The notes under the pieces: generated by a model
Seen by the model: only the letters and a program-made list of their open reading frames with translations
What the model was told of the DNA's origin: nothing
Databases searched by the model: none
Made by a program: the position numbers and the translations under genes
Shown: positions 4,070 to 62,165 of the stretch, one piece after another
How the letters are laid out: each line of letters opens with the position of its first letter
How positions within the stretch are numbered: position 1 is the stretch's first letter
Source: Carcharhinus longimanus
Lineage: Eukaryota
Length of the DNA stretch: 64,000 nucleotides
Assembly (NCBI GenBank): GCA_030264375.1
Contig: JASCQW010000148.1
Location: 21,471,262 to 21,535,261, forward strand
Direction of reading: 5' to 3'

Positions 4070-4455
4070 AGAGAACCTAGCCCTTGGTAAAATGTTTCAA
4101 ATGTGGCGTAAACCAAGTGAATAGCCAAGGACTTCTCCCCAAGATAGGGGAATCTGAAACTAGAGAACATAGATTTAAGGCGAGAGGCAAAAGATTTAAG
4201 AGAGACCTGAGGGGCAACTTTTTCGCATAGAGGTTGCTGTGCCTATGGAATGAGCTGCCAGAGGAGATGATAGAGGCAGGCACAATTACAACATTTGAAA
4301 GACATTTGGACTGCTACATGGATAGGAAGTGTTTAGAGGGATACAGGCCAAACACAGACAAATTCAGATCAGTTTAGTTCAGTTTAGGAAATTTGGTCGG
4401 CATGGATGAGATAGGCCGAAGGGCCTATTTCTGTGCTGTATATCTCTGACTCTGT
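4070..4455 (+). mobile_element. CR1 LINE 3' end
   Basis: Encodes ESETREHRFKARGKRFKRDLRGNFF...VAVPME-type CR1 C-terminus, then a 3'UTR ending ggccgaagggcctatttctgtgctgtatatctctgactct. Confidence 0.85.
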
Positions 4456-5469: not shown

Positions 5470-5945
5470 GAGAAATGGAAATTTTACAGAAATGAAGAAA
5501 AGCCAGAAAATGCTGGAAGCACACAACAGATCACAGTTTAGCATCTGAAGGAAAGGGGTGAAACAATGGTTAGTACTGCTGTCTCATAGCACCAGGGACC
5601 CAGATTCAATCATGGCTTTGGCTGACTGTGTGAACTTTGCACGTTCTCCCCCGGATCTACCTGGGTTGTCTCGGTGCTCTGGTTTCTTCCCACAATCCAA
5701 AGATGTACAGGTTAGATTNNNNNNNNNNNNNNNNNNNNNNNNNNNNNNNNNNNNNNNNNNNNNNNNNNNNNNNNNNNNNNNNNNNNNNNNNNNNNNNNNN
5801 NNNNNNNNNNNNNNAGATGCTCTGTCAGAGAGTTGGTGCAGACTTGATGGGCTGAATGGCCTCCTTCTGCAGCATACGGGTTCTATGAAAAGCAAAAGGG
5901 ACAACTGACCTGCTATTACTTCGCTCCTTCAGATACTGCCAGGCT
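5470..5945. mobile_element. Penelope-derived palindromic short element, split by a SINE
   Basis: Left arm cagaaaatgctggaagcacacaacag...agcatctgaagga and inverted right arm tccttcagatactgcc flank the SINE at 5555-5888. Confidence 0.5.
5555..5888 (+). mobile_element. V-SINE, HE1-like with CR1-derived tail (contains N gap)
   Basis: tRNA-like head (tggttagtactgctgtctcatagcaccagggacccagattcaatc), V-domain (tgcacgttctcccc...ggtgctctggtttcttcccaca) and CR1-type tail (gatgggctgaatggcctccttctg...ttctatga). Confidence 0.85.
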
Positions 5946-8504: not shown

Positions 8505-10237
8505 ATTGCCCATATCCAGATTTGATCAGGTCCAGGATGCTGAATAAACTCATCCCAGATGAACTTGTGGATCAGAAAAAGCGTTTGCCCAAGAATATAA
8601 ACACTTTGGAGGGTGACCAATGGAAAGCAAATCTTAAGTGGAATTTTCCTGTGGAGATAGAATTTCCTGTGGTACTAGAAAGCCCTGGACTGGGTGGCCA
8701 TTAGCCCCAGGGTAGCGCAGTAGTCATGTCATTTTGATTGAGCATTTTAATTCAGGTCCTTCACACTGTTCAGGCCCAGTAACTGTTTAGGTATTGGCAC
8801 TAATGGTGGGATTCATGAAAGGTCATCATCACAAGCACTTTCCTATTAGAACATTATAATCACCTTCCTGATGTGCCTAGTGATATCTCCCCTGTAGAGT
8901 TCACAAATTTAATTCTGCAGACTCCTGTGACATTTCTAATAAGAACCATGATATTTTGGCAATTTAATGTCAAAAAAGACTTCAAAAGTAAAAAAAAAGA
9001 AACAACATGATCCACATGGTTGACAGAAAATTACAGTAGTTTGTGAATCTTGCTCAATTTTTACATTCTAAAAAGCAAAATTTTAACTTCCACTATAATT
9101 TAGTATCATAATTTCTACAAAATGTAATCAAAACAAACTTATTTCTACTGCTTGTTTAAAGTAAATAAATACAAATACAAATTGTTGAATTTTTAAAAAT
9201 CTATAATTAGAAATTGCTGCCATCCCACATGACTGTAAAAGCAGAATTTGCCTTTGGAAATAATTTTATTGCCATTACCAGCAAAGAATTTTGCATTTTC
9301 TGAAGCAGTTGCCATGGACCTACTGCAAGCTTGGACCAGCCAATGTCCTGACAGGAAAACAGAGCATTGGAAATTAAATTCTCTATTTGACCAGTTTGAA
9401 CAGCAAGAATCAGGGCTTTGAATGAGAAAGTCCCTCTGTCTCCCATGGGGTTTTGTTTGAAGGACAACATCAGCTGTATGTTAGCTCTCAGCTTTTGCAT
9501 GTCTGACTTTATTAAAATGGCTGGCATTATTATCTCATCCAGCTGTGGGTTACAAAAAGAGAACTTCTTCTGGGTCTCAAATCAGTTCTGCCAGAAGCAG
9601 TAATTCTCTGTCATGTCCCAAAACCAACGGCTAATTATATGAATTTCAAAAAGATTATTCTTTTCTTGGGATGAAGTTGATGGGGGTGAACCTACTCTGT
9701 GAGGATGGCAATATTTCCTTATTCCTAGTTATGTTGTATGTCCCTTCAATTGGCATATATTGAACATAACTAAGATAAGGAATACCCTGTCCCATATCTT
9801 GCTCTAGTGACTCATTCCATTGTTACAGGAAATGGCTGGACAAAGGAATTTGGATCACTTTTACTGTTGCTGGCAATAAACCAGTGTACATTTAACCCAA
9901 TCTAGTTACCCTTCATAGCTTATGGGCTTGTTGAAAATGCACCTTTCAATAAAGGTATGCGTGTATAGTCAAGCGCATAAATAAGAAGGGAGGATCAAGG
10001 ATCTGTCTCAACACCCTTTTAACAATGACAAGGTTATCCACACTGTGTTGAAGATATTTCTGATAGGTACTTTGAAGGAGATATGAAAGTGGATGCCTTG
10101 AGCAGGGGCAAATACCAGTCTCTCAGTGTATTTTCCATGAGAAGTATCGCAATTGAGTATTACACCTTTGGCATCTGGGGATATGGGAAGACAGACATTC
10201 CAGCAAAGTTCTAGAAAAAGACAGAGCCAAAACTTCG

Positions 10238-10348
10238 GAAAAAAGCAAAGCTCTGACAAAGGCTTGTCTGGACTTGAAACATCAGCTCTTTTCTCTCCTT
10301 ACAGATGCTGCCAGACCTGCTTAGATTTTCCAGCACTTTCTCTTTTGA
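10238..10348 (+). mobile_element. 111-bp Penelope-derived element with hammerhead-like core and 13-bp target-site duplication
   Basis: Perfect direct repeat agccaaaacttcg at 10225-10237 and 10349-10361. Internal ctgacaa...gactt-gaaac-atc followed by acagatgctgccagacctgc. Confidence 0.8.
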
Positions 10349-11904
10349 AGCCAAAACTTCGTTAGAATTTTCAGGACTGCAGAACAGTAAATTTCACAGA
10401 CTTTGCGAATACAGAAGTGATGAGGGTTTTTATACTGCAAGTCCTAAATGTATGAAACTTCACTCAAAGACTAAAAAGGTATTATTTGAATTGGGTAATA
10501 TCAATAGGGGAAAAACCGATGTTCCACCAAGCTTGATAATAGAAATAAGTAAGCTCTTAGTGCCCTTCCAAAGGAACACAAATCAACTAAGAAGCATTTG
10601 CAGAACTGCAGTTGAAGGGAGGGAAGAGTAAATAATACAGCAAAAGAAAGCACTTCAGCATTAGAACATAGCTTCACTTTATGCTGTTATCAATACCAAA
10701 AATGTTGCTTTGAGCTCTTGAGAACTCAGTGTAAATTTCAAAGGGAAAAGGAAATATATATCAAAGTTGAAGTTCTAAAACAACATTACCTTTAATAATT
10801 GAGTCAGTGGCTGTACTTGAAGAAAACCCACATAGGTAGCTCTTGGAATTATTCTGCCTGCTCTTATTTTTGAACCAGAAATTGCTTGGAGCTTTGACGT
10901 TCAGTCATCGGTCTGTCTCATTATAAACAGCTTGGTTTCAGTATAGTGATCACTAATCAAATGGTGACTGTTACACGTGTGCTATTTCCATGCTTGACAG
11001 AAGGTGTAGCCAAAGCTTTTCTCCCTGGAATTACACACAGCAGTCACTACAAGCCCCAGTTGGTGCAAATGAGGTTATCTCTGGGCCATCTAGTTTTCAT
11101 GCTAATTAACTGCAGTTGCAGTTTTTTTCTGATTTACAACTCCTAGTGAAAAGCACCACATCCCTATTAGAGTGCCAAATGGATCAATGCAGATTATAGA
11201 AATATAATGGCATCTCAGCAGGGACATTTAGTTCTGCACCATTCAATTAAATGGCATATATTGATTGGTTTGGCTCAACAAATGAGCGATTGTTATTGGG
11301 TGTTGAATAGTTTCAGTACATAACTGGATTGCTTGTATTATTACTGAACTATCCATTGTCTCATGGGATATGTTGACTGTGTTATTTTGTTTGTTGTTGG
11401 CATGCAACGTTATGGTATTCCCATGTAAAATAATGAGACAGTTGCCATTACCTGAAATAAAGTTGAGCAATGCAAACTATTTTGTTTGCAATGCTCAACT
11501 TTGCAGTCATTCTAAGTTGGTGTTCTAAGATTTGCAATGCCATGTTTAATGGCTCTATTTGCTATTGTGACAGCAAAGCTACTTGTTTCCTAAATTATGA
11601 GTTCCAATGCAGTTTGAAATATTGGTTATTTCATATGCAGATCATGCAAAAATGTTTTATTATGTGTGCTTAGCAATGATTGGAAATCTGGCAAAAGCAC
11701 TCAGTTTTTTTTCTGTGGGAAAGCCTGGATTGCACCAGTGGCCTCATGTGGAGCAAGTGTCACCACGTAGAGCAGCTTGAGTTCTGGGTTTTGGAGCTTG
11801 AGCAGTGACTGGGGGCATTATGGAGCTTCACAAGATTGAGTTTCATGGATAGTACATTTCTGGAGATGATCACCTCGCAGTTCAAACTTGTGTAGGCAGA
11901 GAGC

Positions 11905-12100
11905 AAAAGTTATTTATTCGTGTCACAAGTAGGCTTATGTTAACACTGCAATGAAGTTATTGTGAAAATCCCCTTGTCGCCATACCCTGGCGCCTGATCA
12001 GGTACACTTAGGGAGAATTTAGCATGGTCAGCACGCCTAACCAATACATCTCTCAGACTGTGGGAGGAAATCGGAGCACCCAAAGGAAACCTACGCTGAC
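11905..12100 (-). mobile_element. V-SINE with Rex1-like tail, 5'-truncated
   Basis: Reverse complement of the 25735-26024 family (tgtcacaagtaggcttatgttaacactgcaatgaag...gactgtgggaggaaa). Confidence 0.9.
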
Positions 12101-15619: not shown

Positions 15620-18021
15620 ACGTTTTGGGACTAGATGTGGTTGTGACCTGTTCAGATGGGATGGTCTTCATCTGAATCGTGCTGGGACCAGAGTCCTGGC
15701 AAATCGTATAACTAGGGCTGTAGATAGGGCTTTAAAGTAATTAGTTGGAGGAGAGGGTGCAGGGGTATGGGGAATTACAAAATCAAAAGTAAAAGAGAGG
15801 GTATGAGTGCAGGTTAATGTTGAGGACATTCCACTAGTTAAAGGAGTAGAGTGCATGGGAGAGGTTAGTAGCGTTTCAACAAATCGGGTCCAGATAAAGG
15901 CTGGCATAAAGACACTGTACCTGAATGCACAAAGCATTCGAAACAAAGTGAATGAGTTGAATCAGCACAAATGGGTTTGATCTCGTGGCCATTACAGAAA
16001 CGTGATTGCAGGGTGACCGGGGCTGGGAACTGAATATCCAGGGGTTTCGGACATTTAGGAAGGATAGACTGGAAGAAAAAGGAGGTGGGGTAGCTCTGTT
16101 GATAAAGGATAATATCAGGGCAGTAGTGAGAGACGATATAGGCTCCAAGGAGCAAAATGTGGAATAGTTGTGTGAAGGTAAGGAATAGTAAGGGGAGAAA
16201 GTCACTTGTGGGTGTGGTCTATAGGCCCCCGAATAATAACTTTTGAGGTGGGGCAGGCTATAAACAAGCAAATAATTGACGTGGAACGGCAGTAATCATG
16301 GGGGATTTTAACCTGCATATTGATTGGTTGACTCAAGTCAGACGCAGTGGACTAGAGGAAGAGTTCTTAGAATGCTGTTAGGATAGTTTCCTTGAACAGT
16401 ATGTTACAGAACCTACGAGGGAGCGAGTTATCTTAGATCTGGTACTGTATAACGAGGCAGGTAGAATTAGGGATCTTCTTGTGAGGGATCCCCTTGGGAC
16501 GAGAGATCACAATATGGTTGAATTTCTGATACAGATGGAGGGTGAGAAAGTAGGGTCCCAAACCAGTGCTTGAACAGAGGGGAGTATGATAGGATGAGGG
16601 CGGAATTGGCTAATGTAGACTGGGGGCGCAGACTGGTTGGTAGGACGGCTGAGGAACAGTGGAGGATTTTTAGGGAGATCTTTTTCAGTACTCAGCAAAA
16701 ATATATTCCAGTGATAAAGAAGGACTGCAAGAAAAGGGATAACCAGCCGTGGATAACGAAGGAAACAAAGGAGAGTATTAAATTAAAAACCGATGCGTAC
16801 AGAGTGGCTAAAAATAGTGGGGAATTAGAAGATTGGGAAAGATTTAAAAAACAACAAAGAATGACTAAGAAAGCGATAAAGAAAGGAAAGATAGAGTATG
16901 AAACTAAACTAGCTCTAAATATAAAAAATGATAGTAAAGGGTTTTACAAATATATAAAGAAGGGGACAGTGGCTCGAGTAAACGTTGGACCCTTGGAGGA
17001 CGAGAGGGGGGATTTAACAGTGGGTAACAAAGAAATGGCTGAGACTTTAAATAAGTTTTTTGTGTCGGTCTTCACAGTGGAGGACACAAATAGCTTACCG
17101 AATATTAAAGATAGAGGGTTGGTAGGAGATGACGTCCTTAAAACAATTACTGTTACTGAAGAGTAGTGCTTGGTCGACTAATGGGACTGAAGGTAGACAA
17201 GTCCCTGGGACCAGATGGAATGCATCCCAGGTACTGAAAGAAATAGCAGAAGTAATAGAGATGTGTGAACAGTTACTTATCAAAATTCGCTGGACTCTGG
17301 GGAAGTGCCGACAGATTGGTAAACAGCTACTGGTACGCTGCTGTTTAAAAAAGGTAGCAGACAAAAGGCAGGTAACTACAGGCTGATTAGCTTAACATCC
17401 GTAGTTGGGAAAATGCTAGAATCCATCATTAAAGAAGAAATAGCAGGACACCTAGAAAAGAACAGGTCGATCAAGCAGGTGCAGCATGGATTCATGAAAA
17501 GGAAGTCGTGTTTGACGAATTTACTGGATTTTTATGAAGATGTGACTGGTGCGGTCGATAGAGGGGAACTGGTGGATGTGTCGTTTTTAGATTTCCAGAA
17601 GGCGTTCGATAAGGTGCCTCACAAAAGGTTGCTGCAGAAGGTTAGGGTACATAGAGTTGGGAGTAAAGTGTTTGCGTGGATTGAGGATTGGCTATCTAAT
17701 AGGAAGTAGAGAGTTGGAATGAATGGGTGCTTTTCTTGTTGGCAGTTGGTGACTAGTGGTGTGCCGCAGAGGCTGGGGCCTCAACTGTTTACCGTATACA
17801 TAGGCGATCTGGAGGAGTGGCCTGAGTGTAGGCTAACAAAATTTGCTGATGACATGAAGATGAGTGGGAAAGTGAATTGCGTGGAGGACACGGAAAGTCT
17901 GCAGAGAGATTTGGATCAGCTGAGTGAGTGGGCGAGGACCTGGCAGATGGAGTATAATGTTGGCAAATGTGAGGTTATCCACTTTGGAAGAAATAATAGT
18001 AGGATGGAATATTATTTAAAT
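15620..18021 (+). mobile_element. CR1 (HER1-like) LINE, long copy with inactivated ORF1 end and ORF2 (APE + RT), runs into N gap
   Basis: ORF1 end LFRWDGLHLNRAGTRVLANRI. ORF2 motifs LYLNAQSIRNK, GGGVALLIKD, VGVVYRP, MGDFN, QHGF..KSCLTNL, LDFQKAFDKV, GVPQ, KFADD, WQMEYNVGKCEVIHFG. Multiple stops and frameshifts. Confidence 0.95.
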
Positions 18022-21714: not shown

Positions 21715-21802
21715 AAGTGAAACAAAAACAGAAAATGCTGGAAAGTCTCAGCAGCCTGACAGCATCTGTGGGGAGAGAATAGAGCCAACGTTTCGAGTCT
21801 CT
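21715..21802 (-). mobile_element. Penelope-derived short element, one arm
   Basis: aacagaaaatgctggaaagtctcagcagcctgacagcatctgtggggagagaatagagccaacgtttcgagtc, with GACTC-GAAAC-GTT on the minus strand. Confidence 0.75.
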
Positions 21803-24224: not shown

Positions 24225-25103
24225 TTTTTTATTTGCTCACGGAATGTGGGCATCGCTGGGTAGGCCAGCATTCATTACCCATCCTTAATTGCCCTTAATG
24301 AAGTGGTGGTAAGCCACTGCCTTTAACTGCTGCAATCCATGTGGTGTAGGTACACTCACAGTATTGTTAGGAAGGGAGTTTGATCATGTAATGGTGTAGG
24401 AACAGTGTTGTAATTCCAAGTAAAGATGGTGTGTGGGTTGGAGGGGAACCCACAGGTATTGATGTTCCCATGCATCTGATTCCCTTGTTCTTCTATGTGG
24501 TAGAGGTTGTGGGCTTGGAAGGTGCTGTTCAAGGAGCCTTGCTGAGTTGCTCCAATGCATTTTGTAGATGGTACACACTGCTGCCATTGTGTATCAGAGG
24601 TGGATGTTTAATGTGGTGGATGGGGTGCCAATCAAACAGGCTGCTTTGTCCTAGATGGTGTTGAGCTTCTTGAATGTTGTTTGAGCGGCAATCATCCATC
24701 CAAGTGGCGAATATTCCATTACATTGCTGACTTGTGCCTTGTAGCTAGCGGACAGGCTTCGGGGAGACAATTACTAGCTGTAGAATACCCAACCTCTGAC
24801 CTGTTATTAGAGCGACTGTATTTTTAAGGCTAGTCCAGTTCAGTTTCTAGTCAGTGATAACCCCCAGGATGTTGATAGTGGGGGATTCAGCAATGCTAAT
24901 GCAGTTGAAAGTCAAGGGGCGATTGTTAGATTCTCTCTCGTTGGAGATATTAATTGTCTGTCACTTGTGTGGCACGAATGTTATTTGCCATTTATTAGCC
25001 CAGTCCTGAATATTGACCAGCTCTTGCTGCTTATAGACACAGACTGCTTAAATATGTGCTGATTGGTGAATCATCAGCAAACATCCCCACGTCTGACCTT
25101 ATT
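24225..25103 (-). mobile_element. CR1/L2-superfamily LINE (second family) 3' ~0.9 kb
   Basis: Minus strand VGMFADD (near 25070-25090), MEYSPL.W, AAVCTIYKMHWSNSARLLEQHLP. The 3' tail is shared with the SINE at 5951. Confidence 0.85.
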
Positions 25104-25346: not shown

Positions 25347-25635
25347 ACTGCTGCCTCTCAGCACCAGGGACTTGGGTTCAACTCCAGCCTTGGGTGACTG
25401 TCTGTGGACTTTGCCCGTTTTCCCTGTGTCTTTGTGGGTTTCCTCTGGGTGCTCTGGTTTCCTCCCATAATGCAAAAGATATGTTGGTTGTGTGCATTGG
25501 CCTTGCTAAAGTCTCCTTCAATGTACCCGAACAGGCACCAGAGTGTGGCAACGAGGGGATTTTCACAGTAACTTATTGCTGTGTCAATGCAAGCCTACTT
25601 GTGACACTAATGAATAAAATTAAACTTTAAAAAAA
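25347..25635 (+). mobile_element. V-SINE with Rex1-like tail
   Basis: B-box gggttcaactcc, V-domain and tail ttttcacagtaac...gcctacttgtgacactaatgaataaa. Confidence 0.9.
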
Positions 25636-25734: not shown

Positions 25735-26024
25735 GTGGCACAGTGGTTAGCATTGCTACCTCAGTGCTGAGGGCCCTGGTTCGATTTCCGGCTTGAGTCA
25801 GTGTGTGGAATCTGCACGTTCTCCCCGTGTCTGCATGGGTTTCCTCCGGGTGCTCCGGTTTCCTTCCACAGTCTGAAAGACGTGCTGGTTAGGTGCATTG
25901 GCCATACTAAATCCTCCAGTGTACCTGAACAGGCACCGGAGTGTGGCGACTAGGGGGTTTTCACAGTAACATTGCAGTGTTAATGTAAGCCTACTTGTGA
26001 CACTAATGAATAAACTTTAAAAAA
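25735..26024 (+). mobile_element. V-SINE with Rex1-like tail, full length
   Basis: A-box tggcacagtgg, B-box ggttcgatttcc, V-domain tgcacgttctccccgtgtctgcatgggtttcctccgggtgctccggtttcc and tail ...cttgtgacactaatgaataaactttaaa. Confidence 0.95.
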
Positions 26025-27024: not shown

Positions 27025-27228
27025 TAAAAGCAAAATGCTGCGGATGCTGGAAACCTGAAATCAGAATAGAAAATGTTGGAGCAAAACTCAGTAGGTCTGG
27101 CAGCATCCATAGAGAGAAAACAGAGTTAATGTTTCGAGTTCACATGACATCTTCAGAGCCCTTTATTCACTCACAATAAATGCTGCCGGACCTGCTGAGT
27201 TTTTTTCAGTATTTTAAGTTTTCATTTA
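27025..27228. mobile_element. Penelope-derived palindromic element with hammerhead core
   Basis: Inverted arms (aactcagtaggtctggcagcat / atgctgccggacctgctgagtt). The minus strand carries CTGAAGA...CTC-GAAAC-ATT at about 27128-27156. Confidence 0.8.
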
Positions 27229-32439: not shown

Positions 32440-32765
32440 TCTGCTGCTCCTCTCTAGAAATGTCCTTTGTTTCTTTACTTGTCCCATTATCGTTCACTTT
32501 GGCCTTGCACAACCATTCCATTTATCATTTAACATCTCTTGTTTTTCACCCCTTTTCAGACTATTCCTTTTGTTCTATTTCTGCTCCCCTCTTCCTTCCT
32601 TGAAATCTATTACAGTNNNNNNNNNNNNNNNNNNTGATGAAAGCTCGTTGACCTGAAGTATTAACTCTAATTCTGTCTTTGCAGATGCTGCCTGAGCTGC
32701 TGAGTATTTCCAACATTGTCTGTTTTAATTTCAGATTTACGTCATCCATAGTATTTTGGTTTTTG
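32440..32765 (+). mobile_element. Penelope-derived terminal repeat with hammerhead-like core (N gap inside)
   Basis: Pyrimidine-rich tract, then tgatga-aagctcgttgacct-gaagtatta, then gcagatgctgcctgagctgctgagtatttccaacatt. Confidence 0.7.
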
Positions 32766-34982: not shown

Positions 34983-35700
34983 TTTTAAAATTATTTCATG
35001 AGATGTGGGGATCACTAGCTAAAACCTGGTGTTGTCAGACTTTTTACTGTGTTTACGCCAGTCCAACGCCGGCATACCCACATCATGATCACTAGCTAGA
35101 CAGGCATTTATTGCACATCCCAAAATGCCTTTGGGAAACTGGCAAAGAGTCACATCTTCTTCAAACACTTCAGTCCGTGTGATGTAGGCATATCACAGTG
35201 CTGGGAGGAAGGGAGGTACAGGTTTTTGACCCAGCAACAGTGAAGGAATAGCTATAATTATAGGTCGAAGTGAGAATGGTGTGTGGTTTGGAGGACAACT
35301 TGCAGGTGATGGTACTCTCATATATCTGTTGCCCTTGTCCTTTCAGGTAGTAGAGCTTGTGGATTTGCAAGATGCTGCAGTGCACATTCTCAGTGATACT
35401 CACTGTTGCTATTGTGTGTTGGTGGTAGAGAGAATGAATGTTAAAGGTAGTGGATGGGGTGCCAATTAAGCAAGCTGTTTCGTCGTGGGTAGTGTCAAGC
35501 TTCGTGAGTGTTGTTGGAGCTGCATTTATCCAGGCAAGTGGGCAGTATTCCATCACACTCCTGATGTACCTTGTAGATTGTGGACAGGACAGGCTTTGGG
35601 AGGTCAGTTGTTTGCTGCAGAGTTCCCAGTCTCTGACCTACTCTTGTAGCCACAGTATTTATATGCTGGTCTAGTTCAGTTTCTGGTCAATGATAACTCT
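34983..35700 (-). mobile_element. CR1/L2-superfamily LINE (second family) 3' part
   Basis: ORF 35170-35556 MMEYCPLAWINAAPTTLTKLDTTHDETACLIGTPSTTFNIHSLYHQ. Same family as 24225-25103. Confidence 0.85.
35022..35086 (+). mobile_element. 65-bp 5'-truncated retroelement end (probably Penelope-type) with 12-bp TSD
   Basis: gatcactagcta at 35010-35021 and 35087-35098 flanks aaacctggtgttgtcagac...ccagtccaacgccggcatacccacatcat. Confidence 0.75.
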
Positions 35701-37591
35701 TGATAATCAGAACTAATTTCTCTTTGAATGACCCAAACATGATGTGGAGTTGAAAATGGCCACTTCTTAAGAAATTCTCCAAATTGATCCTAACAAACCT
35801 TTTTTTGAGAGCTATGACAGTGATTAGGATAGCCTTTCAGAGAAGCCTATGCCTGAACCACAATCTGAATAGGGAGCTTTTAACCAGTTTAATATTTAAA
35901 TTACTTGAATATAATGCTGAGGTAGCCAATTCAGTTCTTTCAGTTGTCTTAAAGAAAAAACATTTCCACGAATCTTTTATTTTCTTCGAGAGTTTTGTGG
36001 TCTGCCAAGTCAGTTTGTTTTCCCCAGCATCCCAAAGTGGATTGCTTTACATTGGCTGGTCACATTATGCTTAAAAGCCTGCATTTTATGTATTTTGTAC
36101 TCATTCATTATCAATTTGGAAAATTATTTCTCCAAGATATCCAATTAGTTCTAAGACTTCTTGCAAAGATACTCCAGTTGGAAGCGCCTTCCTTTCTGGA
36201 GACAGGAACCCCAGAGGTTCATCAATTACATTTCTTTTCACCTCTTTGCCGCCTTATTATGAATCTGACAGAAATTAGGGATAGAAAGGTTCTAAATAAT
36301 TCTCTTTGTTCCCCTACTCATTAAATGAAGTATCTTTATCTGGCATCATCCAGATGATTATCCAGATCACTGAGCTGATTTTGTTTGCATGGCAAAAGTA
36401 TCTTATGTCTCAGCCTTGTTTGCATTTGATATCCTATTTTTTGAGTTTTAGGCCCAAGTTTTTGGAGCAAATTTTTCCATTACTGGTAGTAATTATTCTT
36501 ATGACTGTTAAGAAAGCTTCTACCAGTCACATATGCAGCACTAAACCTGTCTGTTGTTGTCAGCAACAAATTTTCAGATAGTTTGTAAGTCTCATTTAGC
36601 TTCTTCATTGTAACGTGTGTATACAGAAAAAGTTTTAGATTGTATGACTTCTTGATGCTATCACAATAAAATTATAGCCCATTTAAAAGCGCATCAGTCA
36701 ATCTCCATCTTTTCTTCTTCAGATCTTGTTGCTCGTGCACTTACCTTGCTTTGTTTCTTAGTCCAGTTTTTTTTTTCAGGAAGAGCTTCAGAAAATGCTT
36801 CAAAACAAATAATGTTTTTAAAAGTGTGCTCAAATGAAACTTTGCCATCCAACTTCACACTCACTGATTGAATATTGCAATTCTTTTGTACTTAGTTTGT
36901 GGTTATGTTTCATTGATTGATTCTTGTTACATTGAACTCTTACTTGCTGAATTATTTCATGGGGATATTTCGTAAAAGAAGGACAGTTTGAACCTGCTAT
37001 TGCCACTTCCTTCTCTTCATAGACTGACTTGTGTTTATCTTGAGGCACTGAGAGAATATTGCTCTGAATTATTTCCTCTCAGCAGGTCGTAACTGAATTG
37101 CTATAGGCATCACTTTTGATTTGATATTAGCTTGACTCTTTTGTAAAATAAGTTGCCATAAAGAAATATAAAGTGTGGTCTGCGTTGCTTCCTGTTGTGA
37201 ACAAACAAGTTGCAACACCATGATGGCTTGCTAAGAATATGGATGGAAGGATACTTTAAAAATAACATTTTGAAGGTATCCAGAGTTTGTGGTGTACACA
37301 ATCTTGCACTATTGCTTGTCTTTTAGCTTCATTTCTATATACTAACAGATCTCCCATTGATACACAATAACATTTAAAGACTGCCTGTGGCTTCATGTAA
37401 CTCTGTTTCTGCTGCCTCCTTGAATTCTTTGCTCCCCTGTCTTTTTCTTTCTCTCTTTCCCTTAAGGATTTCCTTTGATATCCCTATGTTGCTATCATCT
37501 AAGGCTGCCTTCTCTATTTGCTGCGTTTTCTTGCACTTTATGTCTTAAGTGCTGGAAAAACTCAACAGGTCTGACAGTATCTGTGGAGAAA

Positions 37592-37903
37592 GAACATAAG
37601 AAATAGGAGCAGGAGTAGGCCATCTAGCCCCTCGAGCCTGCCCCGCCAGTCAGTAAGATCATGGCTGATCTGTCGTGGCTCAGTTCCACATTCCCGCCCT
37701 CTCCCCATAACCCTTAATCCCCTCTCNNNNNNNNNNNNNNNNNNNNNNNNNNNNNNNNNNNNNNNNNNNNNNNNNNNNNNNNNNNNNNNNNNNNNNNNNN
37801 NNNNNNNNNNNNNNNNNNNNNNNNNNGCCTCCACCACTTCAACGGGCAGAGAATTCCAGAGATTCACCACCCTTTGAATGAAGAAGTTCCTCCTCAACTC
37901 CGT
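37592..37903 (-). mobile_element. CR1 LINE 3' end (N gap inside)
   Basis: gaacataagaaataggagcaggagtaggccatc tail. Minus strand TELRRNFFIQRVVNLWNSLPVEVVE. Confidence 0.9.
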
Positions 37904-37967
37904 AGAAACAGAGCTAATGTTTTGAGTCCAATATGACCCTTTTTCAGAACCAGTTCTGAAGAGTTCC

Positions 37968-38421: not shown

Positions 38422-38599
38422 TGTCATATTGGACTTGAAACGTAATGCTGCGTCTCATTCCACAGATGCCCTGAGAACTGCTGAGTTTTTCCAGCACTTT
38501 GTCTCATTTTGTGTTTGTCTCTCACTTTTGGCTCTCTTGCTTCCTTTCTTCCGTTTTTTTTTGTAAGCCCAATTTTCTAATAGCCGCTGCTACAAAGAG

Positions 38600-39749: not shown

Positions 39750-39971
39750 TGCACATTCTTCCCCCGTCTGCATGGATTTGTCCCGAGTGCTCTGGTTTCC
39801 CTTCACAGTTCAAAGATGTGCAGATTAGGTGAATTGGCCATGATAAACTCTCCCTCAGGGTACTCAGTGTACTCAGCTGCTGAAGTGTGGCGACTAGGGG
39901 GTTTTCACAGTAGCTTCATTGCAGTGTGAATGTAAGCCTACTTGTGACTAATAAATAAACTTTAAACTTTT
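39750..39971 (+). mobile_element. V-SINE with Rex1-like tail, 5'-truncated
   Basis: V-domain plus gtgtggcgactagggggttttcacagtagcttcattgcagtgtgaatgtaagcctacttgtgactaataaataaac. Confidence 0.9.
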
Positions 39972-51300: not shown

Positions 51301-51514
51301 TTGAGGCAATGGAGATCAGGTAACCAGTAGCCCTGAGACACAACTCACGCCTTGCTTATGATTCTAGTTCTTACACTTGAGAACTTCAGTTCAAAAAGGT
51401 ATATACTTTCCAGGCAAAATCCCTTCTTATACAAAAACTAAATGCTGTGGATAGTGGAAATCTGAAATGAAAACAGAAAATGCTGAAAATATTTAACTGT
51501 TCAGGCAGCATTAG

Positions 51515-52195
51515 TGAAGAGATACGGAGTTCACTGGAGTTTAGATGAGTAAGAGGTGACTTGATTGAAACCTTTAAGATTCTGAGGGGTCTTGACACGG
51601 TAGATATGGAGAGGATGTTTCATCCTGTAAGAGAATCTAGAGCTAGAGGGTCATTATGTTTAAAGTTTATTTACTTGTGTCACAAGTAGGCTTACATTTA
51701 CACTGCAGTGAAGCTACTGTGAAAATCCCCTAGTCACCACATTCCGGGTACACTGAGGGAGTACTTAGCATGGCCAATGCACCTAACCAGCACGTCTTTT
51801 AGACTGTGGGAGGAAACCAGAGCACTGGAGGAAATCCACACGGACATGTGATAGTGACCCAAGCTGGGAATTGAACCCGGGTCCCTGGCACTGTTAACCA
51901 CTGTGCTGCCATGCCACCCAATCTCAAAGTAAGAGGCTACTCATTTAAGACACAGATGAGATGAAATGTTTTTTAGGAAGGATGTTTGGAAGTAAGTGTT
52001 TGGAATTCTCGTCCTCAAAATACAGTGAAAGCAGAGTCTTTGAATATCTTAAGGCATAAGTACATGGATTCTTGATTAACAAGGGGGTGAAAGGTTATCG
52101 GGGNNNNNNNNNNNNNNNNNNNNNNNNNNNNNNGATCTTATTGAATGCTGGAGCAGATTTGAGTGGCCTAATTCTGCTCCTATTTCGTAGGTTCA
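51515..52195 (+). mobile_element. CR1 LINE 3' end interrupted by a SINE
   Basis: SLEFR*VRGDLIETFKILRGLD.VDMERMF, continuing after 51920 to the 3'UTR. Confidence 0.85.
51659..51919 (-). mobile_element. V-SINE with Rex1-like tail, nested in CR1
   Basis: aaagtttatttacttgtgtcacaagtaggcttaca...gggaattgaacccgggtccctggc...accactgtgc. Confidence 0.9.
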
Positions 52196-52382
52196 TCTGT
52201 ATGCAAGTACCACAGACCTGAAGCATTATTTCTGTTCCTCTTGCCATAGATGCTGCCTGGTCTGATGAATATTCCCAACATTTGCTTTTTTTAAAATTTT
52301 TTTTATTCAGTTCTGCAAAAGCAGCTTCTCAGACATGCACAATAAAAGGGAAGTTTGCTGTTCATGCATGGAAGGTGTTTTT

Positions 52383-52522
52383 GTTCTGGAGAATTTCCTA
52401 AGAAGTGACTCAAAACGTTAACTCGGTTTCTCTCTCCACAGATGCTGCCAGACCTGCTGAGTTTTCCAGCATTTATTATTTTTATTTCAGATTTCCAGCA
52501 TCTGTGATACTTTTGCTTTTGC
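52383..52522 (+). mobile_element. Penelope-derived short element, one arm
   Basis: gactcaaaacgttaactcggtttctctctccacagatgctgccagacctgctgagttttccagcatt...tcagatttccagcatctgtgatacttttgctttt. Confidence 0.8.
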
Positions 52523-55864: not shown

Positions 55865-56255
55865 CAGCACCATCCAGCACAAAGCAGCCTGCCTGATTGG
55901 CACTCCTTCTACCACCTATGCCTAGTAGCAGCAGTATGTACCATTTACAAGATGCACTGCAGCAACTTGTCAAGCCTCCTTTGACAACACGTTTCAATCC
56001 TTTACCACCTTGAAGGACCAGGGCAGCAGTTTCCCTCTAAGCTGCACTTCGAAATACATTGCCTTTCCTTCACTGTTGCTAGGTCAAAATCCGGGGACTC
56101 CCTTGCTAACAGCATTGTGGGTATATCCAAACCTCATGAACTGCAGTGGTTCAAGAAGGCAGCTTACCATCGCCTTCTCAAAAGCAATTACAAATGGGCA
56201 CAAAATGGTGGCCTAGCCAGCGATGTACGCATCCCATGAAAGAATTAATGAGAAA
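55865..56255 (+). mobile_element. CR1/L2-superfamily LINE (second family) 3' end
   Basis: IQHKAACLIGTP, AAVCTIYKMHCSN and tail gcaattacaaatgggcacaaaatggtggcctagccagcgatg. Confidence 0.85.
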
Positions 56256-59599: not shown

Positions 59600-60045
59600 T
59601 ACCATAGAAAATTACAGCTCAGAAACAGGCTTTTTGGCCCTTCTTGTCTGTGCTGAACCATTTTTTGCCTAGTGCCACTGACCTGCACTTGGACCATATC
59701 CCTTCATACCCCTCTCATCCATGAACCCATTCAAGTTTTTCTTAATTGTTTAAAAGTGACCCCACATTTACCACTTTATCCGGCAGCTCATTCCACACTC
59801 CCACCATTCTCTGCGTGAAGAAGCTCCCCCCCCCCTAATATTCCCTTTAAACTTTTCTCCTTTCACCCTTAACCCATGCCCTCTGGTTTTTTTTCTCCCC
59901 TAGCCNNNNNNNNNNNNNNNNNNNNNNNNNNNNNNNNNNNNNNNNNNNNNNNNNNNNNNNNNNNNNNNACCTCTATCAAATCTCCCCTCATTCTTCTACG
60001 CTCCAGGGAATAAAGTCCTAACCTATTCAATCTCTCTCTGTAATT
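59600..60045 (-). mobile_element. CR1 LINE 3' end (N gap inside)
   Basis: accatagaaaattacagctcagaaacaggctttttggccc tail and cagctcattccacactcccaccattctctgcgtgaagaa. Confidence 0.88.
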
Positions 60046-61680: not shown

Positions 61681-62049
61681 CCAAAAAACTTCTGAATACA
61701 TTGTTAGACCAGCCATCTGAATAGTTAATGGTTTGATCGACCTTTTACAATCTGGAAAATGCATGAGAAAGATTTTTGGGCTTTTAATTCTAGTGGTTTA
61801 ATGAAAATCTTTTGAAGCTTCATTTTCAACAGAAACAAGTCTGTTCACACATGGATTCTTACTAATGCCATATTAACTTCTATAAAGGCAGTAGATTTGT
61901 GTGTGATATTCAGCTTAGTCTGTTTTCTGGTGGTTTCCCATATATTTGTTTGATGGGAAAGGATTTCATGTCTCAAACACTCATCTATTTTCAGGACTAA
62001 GAATATAGATGATCTGTTGATGAAAACTATTGGAGAAATCCTAAAATAA

Positions 62050-62165
62050 TGGATTGCAGCGATTCAAGAAGGCAGCTCACCAGCACCTTCTTAAGGGTGA
62101 CTAGGGATGGGCAATAAATGCTGGCCAGCCAGCGTTGTCCATATCCCACAAATGAATAAATAAAT
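62050..62165 (+). mobile_element. 3' tail of the second LINE family
   Basis: ggattgcagcgattcaagaaggcagctcaccagcaccttcttaaggg...ctagggatgggcaataaatgctggccagccagcg...gaataaataaa. Confidence 0.85.

Follow-up and report, generated by a model that had tools for sequence, protein, structure and literature searches.

The 111-bp insert described here is, with a probability that we put at about 0.88, the 3'-terminal stub of a Neptune-type Penelope-like element (PLE), likely left by a head-to-head insertion and likely trimmed of an arm, which has since decayed and carries a hammerhead ribozyme that is predicted to be inactive. It lies in a stretch of 64,000 nucleotides (referred to as the window) from the shark Carcharhinus longimanus, whose genome of 2.68 Gb is CpG-poor. 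The hammerhead motif string given in the preliminary description of this DNA was found letter for letter at 10247-10289, and the perfect 13-bp target-site duplication (TSD) reported around the insert was likewise confirmed, since the direct repeats on both sides are exact. A search of the window for exact 13-mer pairs lying 30-300 bp apart and free of N gave this TSD pair and one low-complexity pair. The open reading frames around the insertion, inspected by eye, showed nothing gene-like. The features of the insert and of the rest of the window are collected in Table 1.

Table 1. Features of the 111-bp insert, of its hammerhead and of the remainder of the 64-kb window (positions are those of the window)
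Feature	Position	Strand	Remark
Left TSD copy, 13 bp	10225-10237	+	13/13 identical to 10349-10361
Insert, 111 bp	10238-10348		flanked by exact 13-bp direct repeats
Long-tail-end stub of inverted second arm, 11 nt	10239-10249	-	exact match once 10240 = T
Decayed minimal type I hammerhead	10249-10287	+	alignment to subfamily copies; core not intact
Helix I	10249-10252 with 10284-10287
Core positions 3-9	10253-10259		C3 opposite A8, a mismatch
Extra A	10260
Helix II	10261-10265 with 10271-10275
GAAA	10276-10279
Predicted cut	after 10283		from alignment
Remaining pseudo-LTR to short 3' end, without the ~35-nt tail	10288-10348	+	model end position 101
Right TSD copy, 13 bp	10349-10361	+	13/13 identical to 10225-10237
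PLE end	21725-21799	-	has inverted long-tail stub like that of the 111-bp insert
PLE head-to-head long+short pair	27026-27160 / 27157-27226	- / +
PLE end	32634-32762	+
PLE end	37547-37596	-
PLE end	37905-37950	-
PLE end	38430-38504	+
PLE end	51434-51534	-
PLE end	52215-52291	+
PLE end	52406-52517	+
Piece matching pyrimidine-rich 3' untranslated PLE body	4191-4280	-
Piece matching pyrimidine-rich 3' untranslated PLE body	59772-59830	+
Second repeat, copies	5575-5715; 11906-12100; 25375-25634; 25778-26024; 39750-39966; 51659-51846	both
Third repeat family	24241-24861; 35156-35697; 55865-56249; 62038-62161
Strong G skew	16001-18000		0.40, relative to the remainder of the window
N runs	5719; 18022; 21385; 37727; 57689; 59906

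Besides the insert, the window holds at least 10 more ends of the same PLE family, which belong to older subfamilies. A second repeat is dispersed in copies that measure about 190-260 bp and are 74-81% identical, and is possibly a SINE; the copies of a third family align at 67-75% identity along as much as 560 bp.

The unit is the 3' end (pseudo-LTR) of a Neptune-type PLE. Upstream sequence is shared in 5 of the first 30 loci, and in one of these (L008) it runs into a GIY-YIG-like frame. A protein search with this frame listed at least 150 matches, from 13,560 candidates, and of the loci chosen in this way 20 were examined. In 14 of them, the query's own locus included, a sense copy of the unit follows the endonuclease ORF at a distance of 250-950 bp; the other 6 contain long stretches of N or the end of a contig. 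Another locus, L187, which came from a search with an RT piece, carries YIDD, YIGE and the unit in this order on one strand. Likewise, an ORF piece from L073 matched 36 proteins, longer than itself, at E<=1e-10, the best of them from Stegostoma tigrinum; PF00078 (RVT_1) was present in 24 of these proteins, and PF01541 (GIY-YIG) also in 5 of the 24. An RT followed by a C-terminal GIY-YIG upstream of the terminal repeat is therefore found in sister copies and is absent from the window stub, and the earlier assignment of the hammerhead to the minimal type carried by PLEs is supported. In the alignment the GIY-YIG domain is preceded by C-x4-C-xx-C, and a CX2-5CxxC motif in this place is described as the mark of Neptune and Nematis (PMC8557442). 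Pfam searches with the decayed ORF pieces stayed below the cut-off (best GIY-YIG E = 0.0016, best RVT_1 E = 0.16), a PDB search with the endonuclease alignment gave no match, and no intact full-length element was seen among the loci examined. Neptune was preferred to Nematis because of its host range, which we take to be the vertebrates.

A search of the host genome with the unit returned 1306 candidates, the best 40 of which are 89-96% identical to it, the locus itself excluded. With a profile built from natural copies, 37 hits were obtained in 464,000 unselected bases (the window region and 30 stretches of 10 kb), that is about 1 per 11 kb, and the ends of this PLE family in the whole genome number roughly 2x10^5, a rough figure in view of the make-up of this sample. 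N accounts for 44,308 of the sampled bases, about 10%, which may bias copy counts. Most copies measure 100-135 bp and have a preferred 5' edge. Two preferred 3' ends, separated by about 35 nt, were found among 253 hits from 142 loci: 95 hits end at model positions 96-111 and 115 at 128-134; the window copy, which ends at 101, has the short end. These 253 hits include 56 head-to-head pairs, 8 of which were dropped because of N or contig ends, and a further 8 of the remaining 48 were ambiguous. A long end is joined to a short one in 37 of the 40 classed pairs, against 2 long+long and 1 short+short (p = 2e-8 against 0.5); L007, counted as long+long, was kept in that class although its assignment is probably wrong. 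Flanking repeats of at least 11 nt, with 1 mismatch allowed, surround 16 of the 48 pairs versus 4 of 500 shuffles, and TSDs of the family, where detected, are 11-17 nt long. PLE neighbours in the fetched loci are inverted and not tandem, and among 111 long-tail copies no shared continuation past the long tail was found, except for one weak pair. The combination seen here of an inverted 5'-truncated partner, a one-sided tail of 30-40 nt and a TSD has been described for PLEs (PMC8557442, PMC3846280). Moreover, in a PLE of the anole the tail corresponds to the segment that two RT start sites delimit, and in vitro both target strands are cut and extended (PMC11167929). At a few loci (L008/L071, L018, L075, L076 and L083) the insertions are longer and their inverted arm includes part of the endonuclease ORF, with kilobase-scale inverted repeats as the result.

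The copies belong to three subfamilies, A, B and C, which are told apart by letters downstream of the hammerhead core. Over 77 columns, the window copy is 7 changes away from the majority of A, 14 from that of C and 19 from that of B. The pseudo-LTR also shows, at 10288-10312 and in sister copies, a textbook-looking 3' splice acceptor (a pyrimidine run and CAG) followed by an ATG; by eye, both are present in all three subfamilies, and in subfamily A the frame from this ATG stops inside the tail.

The history of the locus was read from contigs of 6 runs of 6 relatives, which cover unique sequence on the left side and run on into the insertion. The 11 nt between the left TSD and helix I of the hammerhead match the inverted long-tail end (the background for an exact 9-mer is 2.1e-5 per base), and position 10240 is T in all 6 runs, which makes the match perfect. 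In two relatives (X16 and X19) the contigs part from the window sequence beyond 10249, and the inverted arm is continued there by another 16 and 11 letters before the contigs end; a third (X15) has 13 extra letters at the position of the inverted stub. Because the orthologous sites in two relatives run on into the inverted second arm, the 111 bp is likely the deletion remnant of a usual head-to-head PLE insertion. Since the short site is where the window copy stops and the stub comes from a long end, this insertion would also have followed the long+short rule. Among 34 short solo copies without body, 4 have a long-tail stub at the 5' side. No empty site was found among the 6 runs, all of which carry at least the left junction of the insertion, and the insertion is old, since the flanks differ by up to 42 of 494 letters (X15).

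At the subfamily level the copies have the core 3-9, the GAAA, the UH and the Watson-Crick 3-8 pair of a minimal hammerhead, and the majority letters add the extra nucleotide 9.1, the G10.1-C11.1 pair and the palindromic 15.2-16.2. A genome-wide pattern search for copies with C3 gave 120 matches versus 0 in the reversed control. An intact core was found in 9 of 23 copies of A, 2 of 19 of C and 1 of 7 of B, counts that exclude L002-L030, which were found with the full query and are biased to the letters of the window; these fractions are those expected under neutral decay. In the window copy, 6 of the 7 differences from the subfamily majority fall within the 39 nt of the hammerhead. It has lost the 3-8 pair, the G10.1-C11.1 pair (C11.1 is gone), one pair of helix II, and G16.2 and hence the helix III palindrome. 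Its hammerhead fold has a value of +1.0 kcal/mol versus -8.3 kcal/mol for the better-kept copy L034, whose minimum-energy fold consists of helices I and II, and free folding of the whole unit of the window copy gave no signal (z = 0.58). From these losses, the ribozyme of the window copy is likely dead; the minimal hammerhead of the preliminary description is upheld as a family-level layout, but in the window copy its fold is unfavoured. PLE hammerheads reportedly cleave as dimers, according to Luense and coworkers in 2017.

Two checks that had been proposed for this motif, covariation in helices I and II and a scan with hammerhead models, gave a weak signal and no hammerhead match, respectively. 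In 50 copies, 84.7% of the cells of the hammerhead structure are paired versus 20-48% for slid structures; however, 48 of 500 shuffles reach the same percentage, so that the covariation is not significant. Between subfamilies, helices I and II differ by wobble changes only, and helix I of B, the oldest subfamily, has a C-A mismatch. Rfam returned 0 matches at the gathering score for the window, and for 6 loci with better-kept copies 3 matches at E<=1, all unrelated to the hammerhead; the best was a hairpin family lying on an inverted pair.

Another aspect of these stubs is the position of their 5' ends. Among 27 subfamily A copies selected by their tail, the 5' end lies at -5 to +5 of helix I in 14, deeper inside the unit in 8, at -12 and -15 in 2, and past -140 in 3; no start was found between -16 and -139. 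Where the body upstream is preserved, a TATA-like hexamer stands at exactly -30 from the ribozyme in 22 copies, out of 26 that have one at -29 to -32 and 124 examined; at -30 it occurs in subfamilies A and C. From this arrangement we infer that transcription may start at the ribozyme and that the stubs would be run-off cDNAs without promoter. For comparison, Penelope of D. virilis has an internal TATA-less promoter (PMC2377424), and rotifer PLEs have a TATA-like box in the pseudo-LTR (PMC3846280). The clustering of 5' ends could also come from fold-back of the cDNA at the helix I palindrome, or from a splice acceptor, and not from a transcription start, a serious though less probable alternative. 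Helix I does open with a palindromic 4-mer, many junctions are palindromic, and self-priming at palindromes has been proposed (PMC3846280); as for splicing, a pyrimidine run and an AG lie upstream of position +2, and in D. virilis an intron ends where helix I begins on its 5' side (PMC4209133). Nevertheless, the shared upstream exon expected from splicing was not seen by eye in the copies inspected, and the exact 30-nt distance to the TATA is kept in two subfamilies with different spacers.

The catalytic 3-8 pair differs between the subfamilies. Among 50 copies, it is U3-A8 in 21 rows and C3-G8 in 12. Of 39 copies of subfamily A chosen regardless of their core, 35 have T and 2 have C at position 3, and positions 7-8 are CA in 31, CG in 1 and TG in 1, while the true CpG sites of the same subfamily have kept CG in 24 of 52 and 24 of 46 copies. 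Since T3 is nearly constant and 7-8 is CA and not CG, whereas true CpG sites often survive, the master of subfamily A carried U3-A8, with the core TTGACAA. On the other hand, subfamily C has C3 in 18 of 19 copies with the mixture of CA and TG that is typical of a decayed CG, and the core of subfamily B has C3 and G8. Covariation to U3-A8 has been reported from PLEs of Schistosoma (S. mansoni; PMC4209133), and according to PMC3088659 this variant is active in vitro. When 30 pattern matches with C3 were classed by their downstream letters (7 A-type, 17 C-type and 6 mixed), all 7 copies of the A-type carried CA and none CG or TG, whereas those of the C-type were divided into 7 CA, 8 TG and 2 CG. 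Because of these 7 copies, the C3 of the window copy is most likely a T>C change.

The alternative that an early master had CTGACGA and that A8 arose by CpG decay within the window copy is unlikely. C3 and A8 are also present, unchanged, in the orthologues X7 and X15, and are therefore old, as this alternative would have it; the sister subfamily decays in just this manner, and the TG in loop II of the window copy hints at a minor lineage bearing CG. However, the C3 copies of the A-type uniformly have CA, C3 in 2 of 39 unselected copies is the ordinary level of T>C at neighbouring columns, and the window copy is half as far from the majority of A as from that of the sister subfamily. Of the two deviations that had been put down to CpG decay, the one at GAAACATC, GAAAC(G>A)TC, is well explained by it, for the subfamily copies have CG in 24 of 52, CA in 11 and TG in 9; the explanation is not supported for CTGACGA, which holds for the sister subfamily and not for that of the window copy.

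That the stub is a non-autonomous retrozyme- or SINE-like element, transcribed and re-copied in trans by the PLE enzyme, is very improbable: the size and preferred 5' edge of most copies, the perfect TSD, the sufficiency of pseudo-LTR sequences for integration in trans (PMC3846280) and the argued descent of animal retrozymes from PLEs (10.64898/2026.07.22.740005) speak for it, but there is no tandem array at the locus, the 5' junctions vary from copy to copy, the TATA box lies outside the stub, a longer inverted arm was once present, sense Pol III boxes are missing, and the ribozyme letters are the same in stubs and ORF-linked copies, a comparison partly aligned to a single natural copy and in which some copies were lost. 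The preliminary description had taken the exact TSD to show that the unit inserted on its own; this was not supported, since the unit belongs to an RT + GIY-YIG element and the orthologous sites show the beginning of an inverted second arm, most of which this lineage has lost, and the TSD is no proof of independence because one third of the head-to-head PLE insertions (16 of 48) have such flanking repeats of at least 11 nt. Its remark that the unit has no Pol III head was correct: neither an A box nor a sense B box was found in the unit at 1 mismatch to the consensus patterns, and two overlapping 1-mismatch B-box matches lie on its minus strand. As candidate classes, a SINE was rejected for want of this internal Pol III promoter, and a non-LTR retrozyme because the unit is a single copy at the locus and not a tandem repeat.

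For the head-to-head PLE stub, the following history is proposed. The RT + GIY-YIG endonuclease of the element itself would have nicked both target strands 13 bp apart, and two cDNAs would have been primed at two internal start sites, a process with an in vitro precedent in the anole PLE (PMC11167929). Synthesis of these cDNAs would stop on or close to the base with which the ribozyme opens, which probably is also the 5' end of the transcript, 30 nt past the TATA, and the two cDNAs would then be joined; since the promoter is left behind, no further copies would be made from the stubs. Cleavage after position 17 would take place in active masters, either in the dimer or with protein assistance, and in the master of subfamily A the replacement of C3-G8 by U3-A8 would keep the core working. 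Later, most of the inverted arm would have been deleted in this lineage, and the copy would have decayed.

A more general scheme, offered tentatively and judged less likely than not, places the hammerhead at +1 of a TATA transcript and joins to this the paired long/short priming, run-off at the cap and the swap of the master from C3-G8 to U3-A8. According to this scheme, a paired enzyme would prime the nicked strands from separate fixed sites, one for each strand, which lie 35 nt apart on the 5' end of the transcript; run-off of the cDNA at the cap would yield 10^5 promoter-less ribozyme stubs; and the swap would be the loss of a CpG rescued by a second change. If true, the 3-8 swap would be genomic evidence that the ribozyme is needed in vivo, although it is dispensable in vitro for the anole element. 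The single locus has little weight, as an old, fixed and dead transposon stub, and can be used as a presence marker across related species. The family, on the other hand, offers three countable handles on PLE integration and on the need for weak ribozymes, namely the near-strict long/short pairing, the TATA 30 nt before the ribozyme and the double change of the catalytic 3-8 pair.

All the components of this unit are known traits of PLEs, and its identity is ordinary. Minimal hammerheads have been described in the pseudo-LTRs of metazoan PLEs, including the Neptune elements of fish (Cervera and De la Pena 2014, PMC4209133). The present family shares with them the type I layout, a helix I of 4 bp, one extra nucleotide between 9 and 10.1, the G10.1-C11.1 pair, the palindromic 15.2-16.2 without helix III, and the occurrence mostly as single dispersed motifs from truncated PLEs and as pairs on opposite strands. 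It differs in its helix II, of 5 bp versus 7-8 bp in the schistosome families, and the window copy is decayed; that report is not known to name a shark or ray, though its supplements may. No description of the U3-A8 core of this shark PLE family was found among the papers searched on hammerheads, shark PLEs and the 3-8 swap; supplements and Repbase may hold one.

With the Neptune and Nematis units (PMC8557442, PMC3846280) the family has in common the C-terminal GIY-YIG, the CX2-5CxxC motif, 5' truncation, an inverted truncated neighbour, a tail of 30-40 nt that is often confined to one end, short TSDs, solo pseudo-LTRs and a TATA-like box. Its TSDs are longer, 11-17 nt versus 8-10 in the rotifer examples given there, and the rule of one long and one short end, qualitative in those reports, is counted here (37/40). 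Non-LTR retrozymes (10.64898/2026.07.22.740005), the survey of which includes one chondrichthyan, are similar in their type I hammerhead, lack of protein, proposed origin from PLEs and dispersed monomers; however, they are defined by tandem units that each contain a ribozyme, and the locus has a single stub with ORF-linked sisters. Finally, in PAc Poseidon from Anolis carolinensis (PMC11167929) the tail is likewise delimited by two internal RT start sites, cleavage and extension affect both target strands, and the hammerhead lies just upstream of the start sites, but this element belongs to another PLE clade and its ORF begins within the ribozyme.
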